This document shows, piece by piece, positions 1-58,956 of a stretch of DNA of 64,000 bases (positions within the stretch are counted from its first letter, which is position 1; each line of letters opens with the position of its first letter). The position numbers and the translations under genes were made by a program. A model generated the notes under the pieces. The model had not been told where the DNA came from, ran no database searches, and was given only the letters and a program-made list of their open reading frames with translations. The DNA is from a virus. Lineage: Duplodnaviria > Caudoviricetes. The stretch is taken from the IMG/VR virus record IMGVR_UViG_3300025437_000009; one strand, 5' to 3'.

Positions 1-307
1 CAGGACCACCAATAACAAATATGGTTTTATCTGAATGCTGGGATTCAATTTCTAATAGTTTATCTACAATGTTGCCACTAAATGGCATGGCGTATCTAAC
101 AGGTCGATGTGTGGCTACATATACTGTACGGTTGGGTAAGGGTTTGGGCATTTTACTATCTTCCCAAGTACGTCGTCCGCAGACAACTACATGTCCTGTA
201 GTTAAGTCTTTAAACTGCTGTAAGTCTTCAGAGTTATGAGGCCACGGCAATGAGCCGTTAAACCCCATACCGCCGTTGAAGTCAACGGCAAATATGGCAT
301 TAATCAT
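1..307 (-). CDS. folA: Dihydrofolate reductase, 5' part (runs off the window edge; absent from the ORF track)
   Basis: Manual translation from ATG at 307: MINAIFAVDFNGGMGFNGSLPWPHNSEDLQQFKDLTTGHVVVCGRRTWEDSKMPKPLPNRTVYV...IFVIGGP. This carries the DHFR motifs LPW, GRRTW, PLPNR and IGG. ATGA overlap with the upstream ORF. Confidence 0.95.
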   Translation of the reverse strand, partial: MINAIFAVDFNGGMGFNGSLPWPHNSEDLQQFKDLTTGHVVVCGRRTWEDSKMPKPLPNRTVYVATHRPVRYAMPFSGNIVDKLLEIESQHSDKTIFVIGGP

Positions 308-13447: not shown

Positions 13448-13476
13448 ATTATAGCGTCAAAGGATTATTGTGTCAA
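13448..13476 (-). promoter_or_regulatory. Consensus sigma70 promoter of the ParB-HNH-ABC/GNAT-GIY-YIG operon
   Basis: TTGACA-17 bp-TATAAT. Confidence 0.85.
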
Positions 13477-17687: not shown

Positions 17688-17951
17688 CTAATTTCCTTTT
17701 AATTTCCATATAATATGTTCTGTAGTTTCGTGATATCTGAACTCAACCACAGGTTCGCCTGGGCCTGTCCACATTGCTGTGCCTTCGTAGACAAACTGTA
17801 AAAATAACCAACGACCGGTTAAGGAACTACGTTTTGGTAACCATAAAAACTTTAATCGCCAATGGGCACGATTATAGAAAGCATCGTAAGTTTCATCCAT
17901 GCCTGTATATAAGCCTTGTGGAAACATTACTTGCCCCAGCCATTGCCCCAT
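17688..17951 (-). CDS. Hypothetical protein
   Basis: 87-aa ORF. Confidence 0.6.
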   Translation of the reverse strand: MGQWLGQVMFPQGLYTGMDETYDAFYNRAHWRLKFLWLPKRSSLTGRWLFLQFVYEGTAMWTGPGEPVVEFRYHETTEHIIWKLKGN

Positions 17952-18787
17952 AGGTCCACATGCAATCTGGGACTATAATTAAATCCACGTTCGCAACAGA
18001 TATTGGCAATGTTTAGTTTATTTGATTCGTATGGATCAACAACACCACCCTGCGGCATTAAGTATACGGTACCTTTAAATCCACCTGCACGGAAAGCATC
18101 CACAGCACGTGTAGCTTCATTAACATGATCTTCAGTTTCAACAACAAACTTAAGATATACATGTCCATATGTTTGATAGATATTAACAATTAGTGGCTTA
18201 ATAGCATCATCCCACGATTCGCCTGATGCTGATAGTTTAGCACTGACTGAGAATGTAACTTCACGACCTGAACCAGCATCGGCCCAGTCAATCAAGTAAT
18301 CGCGGAAGTCTTCATGTAATTCTTGAGTACCATTTGTTTCAAACGTAATGTTCTTTAAGTCTGCCATACGTGGATGACTTAACAAATCAGCATAAGCACG
18401 TTGCCAGCCTAAAAGTGGCTCACCGCCAGTAATAACTAAATGTACATCATTGCCATTGTTCTGTACCCAACTACCGTTGGGAGTTAGGGCTAACATCTTG
18501 TCTACAAGTTCATCTGTAGTGTATGTTGGAGACAAATGTTTGAACGCAGGATGCCATGACGCATATGAATCACAGCCTGTTTCTACTAAAGGAAGATCTA
18601 AAAAATCTTTATACAGTTCTACCTTTTTAGCAACTTCATCTGCACCTGTAGACTTTTCACCAGGCTTACACCCAAACCCTGAACAGGTAAAGTTACATCC
18701 ATAAGTTCTTAAGAATACACTAGGTACTCCCACAAAGCGACCTTCGCCTTGTAGACTGTAAAATATTTCACTGACTTTAATCTTCAT
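17927..18787 (-). CDS. queE: 7-carboxy-7-deazaguanine synthase (radical SAM)
   Basis: SEIFYSLQGEG, FLRTYGCNFTC...CDS, ITGGEP, ETNG. Confidence 0.92.
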   Translation of the reverse strand: MKIKVSEIFYSLQGEGRFVGVPSVFLRTYGCNFTCSGFGCKPGEKSTGADEVAKKVELYKDFLDLPLVETGCDSYASWHPAFKHLSPTYTTDELVDKMLALTPNGSWVQNNGNDVHLVITGGEPLLGWQRAYADLLSHPRMADLKNITFETNGTQELHEDFRDYLIDWADAGSGREVTFSVSAKLSASGESWDDAIKPLIVNIYQTYGHVYLKFVVETEDHVNEATRAVDAFRAGGFKGTVYLMPQGGVVDPYESNKLNIANICCERGFNYSPRLHVDLWGNGWGK

Positions 18788-19055
18788 ATATTTTTGACCA
18801 TTCAACTAATTTTTGACTCTTACGCAACTGCGCCGCACGCAATTCTGCATCTGTATATACCTGATGTGCTTTGAGCAATTCTATTAATAGTGTAACATCT
18901 CCTAGCTCTTGAGTCAAGTGTTCTCTTTGGGTACCACCGTCTTTGTACCGATTTTCCATACCAAAGCGGCGGCATTTACTAATAGCCTGTATAACCTCAG
19001 CACACTCCTCTTGGAGTATGTCTAAGATTTCATTAACCTTCGAAGAGGTCTTCAT
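18777..19055 (-). CDS. MazG-like NTP pyrophosphohydrolase
   Basis: LQEECAEVIQAISK...ELGDV acidic motif. Confidence 0.75.
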   Translation of the reverse strand: MKTSSKVNEILDILQEECAEVIQAISKCRRFGMENRYKDGGTQREHLTQELGDVTLLIELLKAHQVYTDAELRAAQLRKSQKLVEWSKIYED

Positions 19056-19539
19056 TCCACTCACGATGTCCTTCACGGAACGCCATATTGCTTTGTGTTT
19101 CACGTACTTCTACACGATAACACCAAAGTCGATCAGCTTCTGCTTGACCCCACATGTCGGGAATATAAACTCCGTTTACAAACTTGTATAGTTGATCGGC
19201 TAGACCTTCACAACCTAGTTTAGGTAGGACGGTTAGTTTAGCTAGATTCTTTTCTTGCAATAATTTGTATGTTTCAAGCTCAGGATCATCCTCGGCTACT
19301 AATAATGTATGATCAAATTGACTTTCAAGAATGCCTTTGAGTTCTTTAAGACCGCCGTAGTCGGCAGCCCAATTACGCACATCTAGGTCATCTGTACCAA
19401 AGTAAAATTTCATACTAAACGAATAGCCGTGAATTAAGTTACAGTGACTATCAGCTCGCCATTGGCGATATGCACAGGGAAATGCATCGTGATACTCTTT
19501 AGTACTTGTGTACTTGTACTGCCTAGATTGGTTTGCCAT
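19033..19539 (-). CDS. queD: 6-carboxy-5,6,7,8-tetrahydropterin synthase
   Basis: CNLIHGYSF, DYGGLK, FDHTLL, VRETQSN. Confidence 0.93.
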   Translation of the reverse strand: MANQSRQYKYTSTKEYHDAFPCAYRQWRADSHCNLIHGYSFSMKFYFGTDDLDVRNWAADYGGLKELKGILESQFDHTLLVAEDDPELETYKLLQEKNLAKLTVLPKLGCEGLADQLYKFVNGVYIPDMWGQAEADRLWCYRVEVRETQSNMAFREGHREWNEDLFEG

Positions 19540-19544
19540 TATAA

Positions 19545-19612
19545 ATCTCCTATGTTAATTATAGCATAGGCGGCAGAATTTGTAAAGCGGGATGACGCCG
19601 AAAGGCCGCTGA
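19545..19612 (-). ncRNA. Candidate cis-regulatory RNA (preQ1-I-like pseudoknot plus anti-SD hairpin) in the queD leader
   Basis: AGCGG/CCGCU stem; loop GGCG or CGGCG pairs with downstream UGCCGCC; CCUAUG/CAUAGG hairpin covers the SD AGGAG. Confidence 0.5.
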
Positions 19613-19626
19613 TTTTGGGAATATAA

Positions 19627-19806
19627 CTATTTATCTTGCGCAACTGGTGGTGAAACATTTGTGTCCACTTTAGTTGTATCAATTCCCATCTTTTTAGATA
19701 AGTATGGATCGATGTAAGGTTTATTAACAGTTTCATCTGCAACATTCCACCCCACGGCACTGACAAATCCTACTAATAACCAAGTTCCAATAAGTTCGAG
19801 TATCAA
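19627..19806 (-). CDS. Small membrane protein (59 aa, TTG start, not in the ORF track)
   Basis: MILELIGTWLLVGFVSAVGWNVADETVNKPYIDPYLSKKMG...; its stop overlaps TAAATA at 19628-19633. Confidence 0.5.
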   Translation of the reverse strand: MILELIGTWLLVGFVSAVGWNVADETVNKPYIDPYLSKKMGIDTTKVDTNVSPPVAQDK

Positions 19807-20364
19807 TTAACGCCACCACTCTTCCCAGGGGAACACAGCCCACTGTGGTTCTTCATTTTTGTTAATACTTAGACCCATGTAATCCACATCTTTGAATTCA
19901 CTAGCTTCATTATTGATTAGTACAGCAAAGCGTACATTATTACCAAATACATTTGCCCAACGTGAATTATCTGGCAGACAACTTGATTGCCAATCTTTTC
20001 GAATCCAGTTAAGGGTAGCACCCGTGTCGTTGATGTCATCTACTATGAGAATATTTTTAGCATGTAGGCTAAAATCAAACGCACCATCTCCGCCTAAGGC
20101 TTTATAACTTCCATCAATCCAGCCAAATGCATCTTCGGCCATCCACAAGTTAGATTCTGGCCCAGCAAGGTCGTCGCGGAAACTTACTTTAAGTGTTTCC
20201 ATTGGTACATCTAAGTATTGACTCAGCATGTTAGCAGGAACTAGACCGCCACGTGTAAGACCTACAACGTAATCGGGCTTCCAACCATCGGCATTCATTG
20301 CACGAATAATTTCGTGTATCCAACCTTTAACAGTTGATTCTTTATAAAATACTTTTCTAGACAT
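19807..20364 (-). CDS. Purine phosphoribosyltransferase (Gpt/Hpt-like, type I PRTase)
   Basis: VVGLTRGGLVPA, PRPP loop ILIVDDINDTGAT, VFPWE. Confidence 0.88.
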   Translation of the reverse strand: MSRKVFYKESTVKGWIHEIIRAMNADGWKPDYVVGLTRGGLVPANMLSQYLDVPMETLKVSFRDDLAGPESNLWMAEDAFGWIDGSYKALGGDGAFDFSLHAKNILIVDDINDTGATLNWIRKDWQSSCLPDNSRWANVFGNNVRFAVLINNEASEFKDVDYMGLSINKNEEPQWAVFPWEEWWR

Positions 20365-21947: not shown

Positions 21948-23200
21948 ATCAACTCCCAAAAATGTATTTCACACAGGCCGCGATGATAGCAAATCTCATC
22001 AAGCCCAAAGTCCAGGTATTAGTCCAGAACTTTACTCGTTCCGCAAATTCATACTGTTCAAGAATGTTCATTTTTCTTTGCCTCTCTTATTTAATATCCC
22101 AAATACCTTTTATGTGTTTAATAACTGTTTGACAGGATTTGACTAATTCTTTATTTGTTGGTGTGCATTGTTGTTCAAATTCAATAATGCCTTCCATTCG
22201 TTGAATAGCAAATTCATCCATAAAGTGTGTAAGGCTTGTATGTTTGTCGTAATGAATTGTTTTCATTTCTCTTGTGCCTTTCTTATAATTGGTCTAAGCA
22301 TAAACACCCATACAGCGTGACTAACCCACCCAACAATGATACCCCAAACGAATGCGTTCATTCTTCAACTCCGAAATGTTTAATACCACTGTTTTTACAG
22401 CAACCAATTTTAACTTTAATCATAAATAAATTATACAGCAATCCTATAGGAAAGTCAATGTTTTTAGATAACAAATATACTAAAGTTTATTACCAAATTA
22501 TTAATCGAGCATTAACACGACCATACAAAAAAGTAAAGAATGATGGATATCAAAAACATCATATTGTTCCAAAATGTATTGGAGGCACTGATTCTACTGA
22601 TAATCTTGTAATACTCAGTTATAAAGAACATAGAGTATGCCATTGTTTACTGATCAAAATGCAACTTACAAAATCAGCAGAAATCAAAATGCGACACGCC
22701 TACGGATTTTTTAATAAGAGTAGCAGATATAATGGGCCACGATATAAACGAGGGAAAGACAATATATTTTCTACTAAGGAAATCGTCGATCAAGTTCGTA
22801 AGCGTATGAAAGAAAACAATCCAATGAAGGATCCACTCTCTCAACAAAAAAGAGTCGATACCTGGAGAGCAAATAGAGCCGCACGAGATTACATTCCGCC
22901 GCGAGTCCTTAAGGACAAATTCATTACGCCAAGCGGCATTTTCAAAACCAAAAAAGAAATACAAAAAGTTGTAGGTATTCCAGAATGGACACTAAACACT
23001 ATCTACAACGATTTAGATGCTTACCCTGTTACAAACGGCAGGGCAAGCAAAAAAATCAATCACTTAAATATCGATCCAACAAAAACTTGGAGAGACAATG
23101 GGTTTGGATTACTTGCCGTTTCTTGATTGTAACGCAATATTGTCAAAGAATTCTTTTTTGGTAGCAGGATCTTTAAGGAATGCTCCGCGAAGAACAGTAG
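21948..23200. mobile_element. Insertion carrying an HNH endonuclease, four small ORFs and a replacement folE 3' end
   Basis: Bounded by the two copies of the folE C-terminal coding sequence. Small minus-strand ORFs at 21949-22071, 22087-22266, 22263-22361 and 22358-22423. The right boundary is approximate. Confidence 0.65.
22458..23126 (+). CDS. HNH homing endonuclease
   Basis: YQKHHIVPKCIGGTDSTDNLVILSYKEHRVCH; basic C-terminal DNA-binding region; TAAATA at 22423-22428; convergent overlap with folE. Confidence 0.88.
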   Translation: MFLDNKYTKVYYQIINRALTRPYKKVKNDGYQKHHIVPKCIGGTDSTDNLVILSYKEHRVCHCLLIKMQLTKSAEIKMRHAYGFFNKSSRYNGPRYKRGKDNIFSTKEIVDQVRKRMKENNPMKDPLSQQKRVDTWRANRAARDYIPPRVLKDKFITPSGIFKTKKEIQKVVGIPEWTLNTIYNDLDAYPVTNGRASKKINHLNIDPTKTWRDNGFGLLAVS

Positions 23201-23912
23201 TTTGAGTCAAAGAGCTGTGTGCCATTATGCCCCTATTGGTGCAACAACCATGTTCACATTCTATATATACACCAATGTTATCGGAATCAGTGGCCTTGCT
23301 TATTTCACGTGCTATATCGTTACATAGCTCTTCTTGTAAAGTACCACGGCGAGCACACCATTGAGCAATGCGAGTATACTTGCTAAGACCAATAAGTTTG
23401 TTTGCGGCAATGATCCCAATATAAGCCACTCCACTAACTGGCTGATGATGATGGCTACACATACTACGAAGTTCAGAGCGTACAACCAACATACCCTCGT
23501 ATCTATCTTCACTGTCGTTTGGAAACGCTGTGGCGTCTGGTCTTGGTGCATATCTACCTTCCATAATTTCATTAAAATACATCTTGGCCAAGCGACGTGC
23601 TGTGCCTTGGCTATTTGGATCAGTTTCTCGATCGATTAATAGGGTATCTAGCACTTGCTCAAACGCTTCTGTAGCTTCATTAATAAGAATTTCTTTATCG
23701 CTTTCGCTTACATAATCACTGATATTGTCTCCAGCCCAGAAACGTTTCTTGTCACGCTTCATATTGAAACGGATAGCATCAGCAAGATTTGCTTCTTCAT
23801 ATCCTTTGTCGCTCATATTCATTGCGGCATCTTCATATCCAGGATGATATGGTGCTTCTTGTACTAGTAAATCTGCTATTTTTTGTTCTTCTGGTGATGC
23901 GTAGTTAGGCAT
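23109..23912 (-). CDS. folE: GTP cyclohydrolase I
   Basis: SMCSHHHQP, IGLSKYTRI, LQEEL, HGCCTNRG; likely start MPNYASP at 23912. Confidence 0.95.
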   Translation of the reverse strand: MPNYASPEEQKIADLLVQEAPYHPGYEDAAMNMSDKGYEEANLADAIRFNMKRDKKRFWAGDNISDYVSESDKEILINEATEAFEQVLDTLLIDRETDPNSQGTARRLAKMYFNEIMEGRYAPRPDATAFPNDSEDRYEGMLVVRSELRSMCSHHHQPVSGVAYIGIIAANKLIGLSKYTRIAQWCARRGTLQEELCNDIAREISKATDSDNIGVYIECEHGCCTNRGIMAHSSLTQTTVLRGAFLKDPATKKEFFDNIALQSRNGK

Positions 23913-23952
23913 TCGTTTCTCCGAGTTAGTGTCGTGGATGACTTTATTGTAT

Positions 23953-23981
23953 ATTATAAGGTATTTAGATCTGTGTGTCAA
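23953..23981 (-). promoter_or_regulatory. Dual promoter: consensus sigma70 with TAAATA inside the spacer
   Basis: TTGACA(23981-23976)-17-TATAAT(23958-23953); TAAATA at 23967-23962. Confidence 0.8.
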
Positions 23982-24022
23982 ATATAATTAAATTTATTTG
24001 TCCATTAACGGTTAAATACAGA

Positions 24023-25102
24023 ATGAAACGAGCTGTACTCTGCGTACCCAATCCACAAGACTATATTGATCAATGCAACAATTATAGCATCATGATCATT
24101 AATCCTCAAGCACCTGTTGCTCGAAATCAATACCTATTGGCCAAAAGCGACTACAGTCTATTGATCACAGAACATGGTGTGGAAGAACGTGACGGGCAAG
24201 ACTACCCAAATGAACGTTTACTTTGGTATACTAGCGGAACTACAGGTGACAGTAAATTTTGCAGTTTTAGTCAGGAACAATTAGACATACTGGCACGTAA
24301 AATCTGCAACACTTATCAAATTACAGCCAATGATCGATATGTGAGTATTATGAGTCTATGGCACGCACACGGACAGGGCTTTTACTGGGCTACCCGACTA
24401 GCTGGTTGTGAAACTCATTTTTTATCAGTTGCAAATATTCGGCACATGCCAGAATTTGATCCCACATTTGTTACTGCTATACCCGATGTACTAAAGACTA
24501 TTGGACAGTTTGATTTTAAAAGCCTACGTTTCCTACGTGGTGCTAGTTCAGCTCTTCCTAATCAATTGTATCTTGATCTAAAACACAAATTTGGGGTTCC
24601 TGTAATAGAAGCATTTGGCATGACCGAAGCACTGAGTCACTGTTTTACTAACCCTTTAGATGGAGAACAGCGCATAGGTACTGTGGGACTACCAGATGGC
24701 ATAGAAGCTGATATAGTCGAAGGACGTTTATATATTAGTGGCGCTACTGTTTTTACTGATGGTTGGTACGATACCGGAGATCTAGCTGATAGAGATGAAC
24801 AAGGCTACTATCGTATACTAGGACGGCATCGTGATCAAATCAATGTTCGCGGGATTAAAGTAAATCCTATTAGTATTGAAAATCAATTAGTACACTCAAT
24901 TCCAACTATAGGTGACTGTGCAGTATTTGGCAGTGACAGTTTAAAGTGTATCTATACAGGAGATACTGATCCCGAGGTAGTTAGAAAATTTTTGATCAGT
25001 TTAGGACAACAATGCAAACCCATGCTACTACAACACGTGGCTCAAATACCAGTTAGTCCTTCGGGGAAGATTTCAAGGACTTGGCTCAATGGCCAATATT
25101 AA
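24023..25102 (+). CDS. AMP-dependent acyl-CoA synthetase/ligase (compact)
   Basis: YTSGTTGDSK, EAFGMTE, GWYDTGD, GRHRDQINVRG, SGKI; likely start 24023. Confidence 0.88.
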   Translation: MKRAVLCVPNPQDYIDQCNNYSIMIINPQAPVARNQYLLAKSDYSLLITEHGVEERDGQDYPNERLLWYTSGTTGDSKFCSFSQEQLDILARKICNTYQITANDRYVSIMSLWHAHGQGFYWATRLAGCETHFLSVANIRHMPEFDPTFVTAIPDVLKTIGQFDFKSLRFLRGASSALPNQLYLDLKHKFGVPVIEAFGMTEALSHCFTNPLDGEQRIGTVGLPDGIEADIVEGRLYISGATVFTDGWYDTGDLADRDEQGYYRILGRHRDQINVRGIKVNPISIENQLVHSIPTIGDCAVFGSDSLKCIYTGDTDPEVVRKFLISLGQQCKPMLLQHVAQIPVSPSGKISRTWLNGQY

Positions 25103-25667
25103 GTAGTCTTAGATCGGGATACGGGTAGGCTTTTGGCGATTCTGCTACCTGTGGTAGTCGTTCTAAACCTAGTTGACAAGTTTCTAAAGTAGGACAATAG
25201 TGGTAACCTTGACTGAATGTCTTTTGATCTTGCCAAGGAGTGATACGTAAATCTCTACCATCACTACGCATACGACTCAATGCTTCATACGCAGTCGAAT
25301 CATCTAATAGTATAGCACCAGCTTTGCCTAGCTCTAGAGGTTTACCGTGACCAAAGCTCAGACATTGCATAGCACCCGGCCGATACATACCACGTTCTAG
25401 TCTACGGGCACTATCCCAGATGTTGGTTTTATAAAATTCATATTCACCCGTCCATTCGTCATCTGTTAGGCGATAATGAATGTTTAATTGATTCAACAGT
25501 TGGGGAATACTAAGATATGTCTGTGCGGGGAATTGGCAGTATCTGACTCGACGGTATCTAAAACACAGTTCAAGAGCATGAGTGCAACCATCAGTTGCCA
25601 CTGCATAGGGAGCACCGGTATATTCAGCTAGTGCAGATTCAAAGTCGAATAGTGTTTGGAAACTCAT
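25086..25667 (-). CDS. Short DegT/DnrJ/EryC1-like PLP aminotransferase
   Basis: FESALAEYTGAPYAVATDGCTHAL, DSAR, SFGHGKPL. Confidence 0.7.
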   Translation of the reverse strand: MSFQTLFDFESALAEYTGAPYAVATDGCTHALELCFRYRRVRYCQFPAQTYLSIPQLLNQLNIHYRLTDDEWTGEYEFYKTNIWDSARRLERGMYRPGAMQCLSFGHGKPLELGKAGAILLDDSTAYEALSRMRSDGRDLRITPWQDQKTFSQGYHYCPTLETCQLGLERLPQVAESPKAYPYPDLRLLNIGH

Positions 25668-58925: not shown

Positions 58926-58956
58926 GCTAACTCCTTACTTGATGTAAGTATTTAGC
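58926..58956 (-). promoter_or_regulatory. SD-sequestering hairpin overlapping the late promoter of the endolysin gene
   Basis: GCTAA-ATA-CTTAC-ATCAA-GTAAG-GAG-TTAGC-T-ATG; TAAATA at 58954-58949. Confidence 0.7.

Follow-up and report, generated by a model that had tools for sequence, protein, structure and literature searches.

The preQ1-I riboswitches are the closest described parallel to the element reported here. This family is characterised by a hairpin-type (H-type) pseudoknot, a first helix (P1) of five base pairs (bp), an A-rich third loop (L3) and a position before que genes, and the C that pairs with the ligand preQ1 lies directly 5' of the P1 3' strand (PMC10622847). In this study we analysed the leader of the queD gene in a 64,000-nucleotide (nt) stretch of viral DNA (Duplodnaviria; Caudoviricetes; IMG/VR record IMGVR_UViG_3300025437_000009), which as a whole is referred to as the window. 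An earlier reading of the sequence, here called the original prediction, had proposed a variant preQ1-I-like riboswitch in this leader. Compensatory changes in both helices establish, at the level of sequence comparison, the pseudoknot and its conservation, and by the same kind of evidence the 3' strand of its second helix (P2) is complementary to the ribosome-binding site (RBS) of queD. We lean towards interpreting the leader as a cis-acting RNA switch, in which a pseudoknot sensor of ~42 nt would represent a new, preQ1-I-like riboswitch class with a guanine-faced candidate ligand.

A conserved pseudoknot in the queD leader

The queD leader is an 87-nt gap on the minus strand between the stop codon (TAG, 19629-19627) of an open reading frame (ORF) of 59 amino acids (aa) and the ATG at 19539. 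From 19610 to 19569 it can form an H-type pseudoknot, in which the 5-bp P1 (AGCGG/CCGCU) is combined with P2 (GGCG/CGCC), a helix of 4 bp in the window and 4-7 bp in relatives. The leader was compared with those of uncultured phages in IMG/VR, where the window QueD has >588 relatives. Motif instances were collected from the QueD relatives, by an exact-word scan and by a degenerate-pattern scan, which together gave 208 instances, 147 of them distinct. The pattern demanded GG, nC, TCA, CC and TCTGC at fixed spacing and no complementarity at the variable helix positions. All sequence elements listed in the original prediction were found on the minus strand where it had placed them, and they are given below with the intervening loops.

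19606-19610, minus strand: P1 5' strand, AGCGG, pairing with 19590-19586
19600-19605, minus strand: loop L1, CCUUUC, variable in length and starting with nCU
19596-19599, minus strand: P2 5' strand, GGCG, inside the P1 loop, pairing with CGCC at 19572-19569
19591-19595, minus strand: loop L2, UCAUC, its last base an invariant C adjoining P1 (147 leaders compared)
19586-19590, minus strand: P1 3' strand, CCGCU, supported by P1 covariation
19578-19585, minus strand: loop L3, UUACAAAU, A-rich and 8 nt long, as in 146 of 147 leaders
19573-19577, minus strand: UCUGC block separating L3 from P2, invariant in alignments A2 and A3 but part of the detection pattern
19569-19572, minus strand: P2 3' strand, CGCC, supported by P2 covariation; its final two C double as the start of P3
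19549-19570, minus strand: P3 hairpin, CCUAUG (19570-19565) with CAUAGG (19554-19549), a -10 hexamer in its loop, covering the first bases of the Shine-Dalgarno sequence (SD)
19547-19551, minus strand: SD, AGGAG, read from the sequence
19539-19537, minus strand: start codon, AUG, read from the sequence

Two registers had been proposed for P2. The register GGCG/CGCC, whose 3' strand lies within UGCCGCC (19575-19569, minus strand), is supported by the family, whereas CGGCG/UGCCG (the -3 register) is possible only in a subset of leaders with a UGCyGCC repeat.

The P1 helix occurs as AGCGG/CCGCU (86 leaders), AGAGG/CCUCU (22), AGUGG/CCACU (17), ACCGG/CCGGU (10) and AUCGG/CCGAU (5). It is 99.1% paired in alignment A3 (139 distinct rows), where the second pair is GC in 123, CG in 9 and UA in 5 rows, and the third is CG in 98, AU in 23 and UA in 18. 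The P2 helix follows a simple rule: the base preceding L2 (UCA..) pairs with the base following UCUGC, and pairing continues outward from there. All five P2 pairs in A3 vary on both sides, and the helix is 80.6% paired. The overall covariation score of this alignment is 0.48, compared with 0.16 after shuffling (0/500) and at most 0.11 in slid controls. In the ungapped alignment A2, six of the six tested P2 pairs vary on both sides, with the innermost pair being UA in 36, CG in 21, AU in 17 and GC in 16 leaders. The P2 cells of A2 are paired in 76% of cases against 51% when shuffled, and the covariation score is 0.67 against 0.25 (0/500), with all slid registers at or below 0.2. Counted by the anchor rule, the mean contiguous P2 length is 3.47, compared with 1.30 for shuffled partners (maximum of 2000 shuffles, 1.86). 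The proposed H-type pseudoknot with a 5-bp P1 and an A-containing L3 is therefore upheld by covariation of both helices in the 147 distinct leaders, and the comparison with related phage queD leaders that the original prediction had called for returned conservation and compensatory changes above both the shuffled and the slid controls. In addition, G-U pairs outnumber A-C/C-A combinations in the P2 cells by ~75 to 22, which shows the pairing to be specific to the queD sense strand, as RNA would be.

The unpaired segments around the helices hardly vary. In L1, the first base is U in 60, C in 53 and A in 34 leaders, and the next two are CU in 147/147. The L2 sequence is UCAUC in 106, UCACC in 22 and UCAAC in 9 of the 147 leaders, and its last C is invariant. 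In L3, A is invariant at positions 3, 5 and 7.

The motif is closely tied to queD. The ORF that comes first after the motif encodes a QueD-like protein in 142 of 146 distinct leaders, with 28-98% identity to the window protein. A cupin, methyltransferase or unknown ORF is inserted before QueD in three of the four exceptions, and the contig ends in the fourth. With a covariance model of the core, the window gave a single copy at 60.4 bits, the next match being at 12 bits, and five related phage genomes, of which three are complete (236-360 kb), also had one strong copy apiece. Since the motif is single-copy in the window and in the related genomes, we consider it a queD-specific leader and not a repeated promoter box; a general repeated phage promoter or regulatory box was ruled out on the same ground. 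At seven of the 80 closest QueD loci the motif is absent, and queD there abuts the preceding gene.

The phages with the motif come from freshwater metagenomes. By megablast and blastn, the window locus has no DNA-level relative among cultured phages, and the closest cultured QueD (54% identity) is that of Acidovorax phage ACP17. In the cultured phages ACP17, R5C and X1, queD overlaps the upstream gene or directly adjoins it, and the core model finds nothing there. Two leader variants compared with cultured phages by blastn gave chance matches only, with E values of at least 2. A pattern scan of bacterial and archaeal genomes returned almost exclusively chance matches and three true copies, each before a QueD-like start. 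These are located on contigs of metagenome-assembled genomes (L281, labelled Rickettsiales, MED657; L322; L330), most likely phage contigs sorted into bacterial bins or fragments of prophages.

One contig (L110) carries a second, diverged copy of the motif (8-53, plus strand; 26.8 bits), with P1 ACCAG/CUGGU and UUCGC replacing UCUGC. It lies directly upstream of the canonical motif-queD unit and precedes a 309-aa ORF (68-997) resembling methyltransferases that use S-adenosylmethionine. This copy may be a decaying duplicate or a variant controlling the methyltransferase.

The ribosome-binding site and the predicted switch

Downstream of P2 the leaders take several forms, all of which pair the P2 3' region with the SD or the AUG. 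In one group, a perfect helix over the start codon can form between AAGUCAUC and GAUGACUU, with the loop strand GACUU as a competitor for AAGUC. In another group, AUGUCU pairs with AGACAU adjoining the SD. In the window, CC at 19570-19569 pairs with the GG of the SD as part of P3, and the UCU of UCUGC can pair with the AGA after the SD. In the unconstrained fold of the window, UGCC (19575-19572) pairs with GGCA (19537-19534), which comprises the G of the AUG and the following GCA. The competition of P2 with the SD hairpin that the original prediction had proposed is borne out, since C19570 and C19569 are shared by P2 and P3.

When the P2 3' region of a leader is matched to its own RBS, the longest stretch of complementarity averages 6.13, compared with 5.17 when the RBS comes from a leader with a different P2 strand (0/200). 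This control was used in place of folding with swapped RBSs because AUGGCA starts are shared among leaders. The SD of the window is unpaired with a probability of 0.28 in the free ensemble, and withholding the pseudoknot strands raises this to 0.70. Among 75 distinct leaders of class A, P3 is perfect in 67, contains only G-U wobbles as deviations in six and has a terminal mismatch in two. A palindromic DNA operator was also considered for P3 and appears less likely, since six of the eight variant arms keep pairing only through G-U. The 5' arm and loop of P3 in the window (19558-19566, minus strand) also read AUG-CUA-UAA, a two-codon mini-ORF without its own SD, which is kept in the window's subclass only through its overlap with the P3 arm and the -10 hexamer.

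We propose that formation of the pseudoknot would withdraw the anti-SD/anti-AUG bases, expose the SD and so turn queD translation ON; the co-transcribed mazG-like and queE-like genes would probably follow the control of queD. The near-invariant loops suggest that the pseudoknot is stabilised by a specific ligand, and the invariant C next to P1 suggests that this ligand presents a guanine-like face. A 7-deazaguanine intermediate, guanine or a pterin would be candidates. The original prediction had the element tuning the modification pathway, which implies feedback to OFF. The wiring points the other way, to a ligand-ON switch, because the P2 3' strand is complementary to the RBS.

Several points weigh against this interpretation. 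An ON logic is unusual for a biosynthetic operon, and the known preQ1 riboswitches are OFF switches (PMC10622847). The window leader alone folds no better than its shuffles (minimum free energy z = -0.53), so the case for function must rest on comparison. In that comparison, the invariance of GG, CC, TCA and TCTGC is partly built in by the detection pattern, the leaders are related by descent so that the shuffle counts overstate independence, and some of the conservation in the window's subclass may serve transcription initiation at the 11/12 promoter embedded in the element (described below) instead of RNA structure. Folding with swapped RBSs still gave 5.1 pairs, against 6.4, a high value for a control, and part of the RBS complementarity is generic, since many leaders have AUGGCA starts. 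The AUG region stays closed when the pseudoknot strands are withheld (0.37 to 0.21, in a crude model), and P3 shows zero double compensatory changes and only wobble-compatible ones.

In favour of a riboswitch, a conserved core is combined with several forms of the expression platform before functionally coherent genes in the 147 variants, which is the pattern generally taken to mark riboswitches. The comparative support, with ~150 variants, two covarying helices and a strict gene association, is as strong as for many accepted riboswitch candidates.

The same structures could in principle work without a ligand, as a co-transcriptional folding timer that leaves the RBS open and then sequesters it, as an RNA thermometer or as a stabiliser of the transcript 5' end. 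Two mutually exclusive folds are inherent in the sequence, the aptamer lies at the predicted 5' end of the transcript, and temperature varies in the freshwater habitats from which the metagenomes came. However, timers and thermometers depend on pairing strength, whereas here the helices drift and the unpaired L2, three A of L3 and UCUGC stay the same. We therefore regard a ligand-free element as quite unlikely.

Promoters around and inside the leader

Two promoter-like elements were found at the window leader, the second of which had been missed in the original prediction:

19628-19633, minus strand: TAAATA promoter-like motif, overlapping the stop codon of the 59-aa ORF and resembling the T4 late promoter
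19558-19586, minus strand: sigma70-type promoter, TTTACA-N17-TATAAT with a TGn extended -10, 11/12 matches, the best site in 2.5 kb

A TAA[AG]TA motif is present at most 45 nt upstream of P1, mostly at 5-23 nt, in 101 of 144 distinct leaders (70%), compared with a background of 3.2% of random 45-mers. Of the 11 copies of ATAAATA on the gene strand of the window, 10 fall between genes, at 25-40 nt before start codons. Further nTAAATA sites on the minus strand include those at 58954, 54394, 48041, 46740, 39751 and 34818. The late promoter of phage T4 is TATAAATA, and by this likeness nTAAATA may be the phage's own promoter type.

The sigma70-type promoter spans L3, the P2 3' strand and the loop of P3. 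Half of the distinct leaders (72 of 144) retain it, with a spacer of 17-18 and with the -10 always TAnnnT, which is the signature of a working -10. In some of the other 72 leaders, which lack the embedded promoter, a candidate -10 abuts the SD. In 20 of these 72, a sigma70 promoter ends a few bases before P1, and nine of the 20 are 12/12 matches. Most leaders have a promoter-like element that stops 5-23 nt short of P1, and the aptamer thus appears to lie at the 5' end of the transcript. Elsewhere in the window, two 12/12 sigma70 promoters (TTGACA-17-TATAAT) are intergenic and on the gene strand, at 23953-23981 and 13448-13476 (both minus), the former ~40 nt before the likely true start of the GTP cyclohydrolase I gene (folE). 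By chance, 64 kb should contain about 0.1 sites of this kind, so the phage evidently uses host-type promoters.

These promoters raise the question of whether the element is simply punctuation at the DNA level, with a weak terminator-like hairpin after the upstream ORF, a sigma70 promoter and only incidental RNA structure. The extended -10 promoter at 19586-19558, its retention in 72 leaders and the two consensus sites of the window are all in line with that idea. Yet half of the leaders have no embedded promoter and keep P1, P2 and the loops nevertheless. Covariation of P2 couples bases of the hairpin loop with the spacer of the promoter, a dependence that no model of a promoter calls for, and the G-U excess shows strand-specific RNA pairing. 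Furthermore, P1 is not followed by a U-tract, and a terminator scan called nothing there. DNA punctuation is thus an extremely improbable explanation, and the embedded promoter probably coexists with the switch instead of replacing it.

If both promoters are used, TAAATA-type or read-through transcripts would carry the switch, whereas transcripts from the embedded promoter would start near 19551 and escape control. Two types of queD transcript are therefore likely in the window's subclass, as judged from the promoter sequences. The embedded host-type promoter would then let early transcripts bypass the switch, and control would act only on transcripts from the upstream phage-type promoter. Contigs of relatives from metatranscriptome libraries span queD through the aptamer (X22 records 29 and 31, X21 record 21); these may include DNA carry-over and show no transcript ends.

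Taken together, these elements suggest a fuller picture, which we put forward tentatively. A phage-borne, preQ1-I-like pseudoknot may have been rewired to ON, may respond to free guanine or to a guanine-faced metabolite from 7-deazaguanine synthesis, and may gate the first committed enzyme in the DNA hypermodification pathway of freshwater jumbo phages, with an embedded host-type promoter bypassing it early in the window's subclass. If the element binds a ligand, it would also help to learn when jumbo phages turn on deazaguanine synthesis, of which QueD is the first committed step, and for what reason. At ~42 nt, the aptamer is small enough for binding tests to be cheap.

Gene neighbourhood and known regulatory systems

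The gene downstream of the leader was correctly named queD in the original prediction, and two further genes are probably transcribed with it:

19033-19539, minus strand: queD (6-carboxytetrahydropterin/PTPS family), the regulated gene; PF01242, E 2e-13
18777-19103, minus strand: ORF for a MazG-like nucleoside triphosphate pyrophosphohydrolase, probably co-transcribed with queD; PF03819, phrog_4856
17927-18805, minus strand: QueE-like radical SAM enzyme, probably co-transcribed with queD; phrog_2076, E 7e-55

A phosphoribosyltransferase gene lies upstream of queD, and folE is found farther upstream at 23109-23981. Downstream of the motif, the gene order QueD, (MazG), (phosphoribosyltransferase), QueE recurs in related loci. 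The upstream neighbour of the motif is inconsistent, being FolE in ~45 leaders and in others a phosphoribosyltransferase, orf59 or other genes. Between folE and the block of small ORFs before queD, the opposite strand of the window carries an HNH homing-endonuclease ORF (22236-23126, plus; phrog_655). Beside folE are an AMP-binding (adenylate-forming) enzyme (23975-25102, plus) and a DegT-type aminotransferase fragment (25086-25667, minus).

The jumbo-phage relatives G001 (344 kb, with terminal repeats), G003 (236 kb) and G004 (360 kb) have FolE, QueD, QueE, the phosphoribosyltransferase and MazG. Pfam models for TGT/DpdA matched nothing in these three genomes, and QueC gave a single match that was weak and partial. 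The deazaguanine product may be derived from 7-carboxy-7-deazaguanine (CDG) and enter DNA via the nucleotide pool, by a ToyH-like phosphoribosyltransferase step instead of transglycosylation. As pure speculation, the adenylating enzyme beside folE could replace the missing QueC chemistry on the CDG carboxylate. Since complete relatives are without recognisable DpdA and QueC, the regulated pathway may itself be unconventional.

The preQ1-I family is represented by Rfam model RF00522 (gathering threshold 39 bits; types I-III, e.g. Bacillus subtilis queC, Thermoanaerobacter tengcongensis and Escherichia coli yhhQ). The Rfam comparison suggested in the original prediction was run and did not place the leader in this family. 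RF00522 gave no match at E<=10 on window positions 19000-20200 or on 17 loci with varied leaders. In the five related phage genomes its best scores were 13-16 bits, away from the motif, while the B. subtilis control was found. A cmscan of the leaders against Rfam 15 returned chance-level matches only (YenS, GlsR5, isrJ and miRNAs), and no phage queD leader RNA was described in the literature that we searched.

The likeness to preQ1-I is nevertheless considerable. In both, a 5-bp P1 (AGnGG/CCnCU here) and pairing of its loop with the 3' tail make up a small H-type pseudoknot, and the base just before the P1 3' strand is a conserved C (147/147 in the queD leaders). An A-rich L3 of ~8 nt comes after P1 in each, and each precedes 7-deazaguanine (que) genes. 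The second commonest P1 of the queD leaders, AGAGG/CCUCU, is also what we take to be the P1 of B. subtilis queC. The differences are equally clear. L1 of the queD leaders is longer (8-14 nt including the P2 5' strand) and has no conserved U at its first base (U 41%, C 36%, A 23%). The invariant UCUGC is inserted between L3 and P2, whereas L3 of preQ1-I leads directly into P2. The P2 helix has 4-7 bp, more than in preQ1-I, and its sequence is not fixed. It does not include the SD, the start codon follows UCUGC by 21-42 nt, and the P2 3' strand serves as the anti-SD/anti-AUG. The wiring hence predicts ON, whereas preQ1-I is OFF, and the motif is almost confined to uncultured phages. The leading idea of the original prediction, a bona fide variant preQ1-I riboswitch that binds preQ1 or preQ0 and represses queD, would account for the topology, the P1 likeness, the invariant C, the 8-nt A-rich L3 and the que context. 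It is very unlikely given that RF00522 does not score at the motif, that the L1 U is not conserved and UCUGC is inserted, and that the RBS should become accessible, not hidden, when P2 forms. The best reading of these comparisons is that the queD leader may form a new riboswitch class, preQ1-I-like in fold but not in wiring.

Leader pseudoknots that alternate with another fold and set ribosome access are also found in the operators of T4 gene 32 and E. coli rpsO (S15), and the phage context matches T4 gene 32. These operators are bound by the encoded protein and translation is repressed. By analogy, the queD pseudoknot could be a translational operator bound by a phage or host protein, such as QueD or another pathway enzyme, that frees or traps the RBS. 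The structural evidence would be the same, and the invariant loops and UCUGC suit a protein site equally well. The pseudoknot form of rpsO, moreover, exposes the RBS and is repressed all the same, which would remove the oddity of the ON logic. In contrast to these operators, the core of the queD leaders is nearly unchanged while QueD diverges to 28% identity, which a fixed small ligand explains more easily. A compact size like that of preQ1-I and an invariant C adjoining P1 are also what purine-type aptamers typically show, and no candidate RNA-binding protein is conserved beside the motif. No protein partner is indicated, and we consider a protein operator unlikely.

The proposed ON switch finds its nearest functional parallels in translational ON riboswitches with a sequestor helix, namely the adenine add riboswitch and guanidine-II/III. 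In these, ligand-stabilised folding of the aptamer withdraws a strand that otherwise pairs with the SD or start codon, although their folds and ligands are different. We know of no sequestor-type ON riboswitch before que genes or in phage DNA-modification pathways. To our knowledge, riboswitches are rare in phages, and none controls a DNA-hypermodification pathway. If the queD leader does bind a ligand, 7-deazapurine-like compounds would be sensed by a fourth type of RNA structure, and this type would be the first that is wired to activate.

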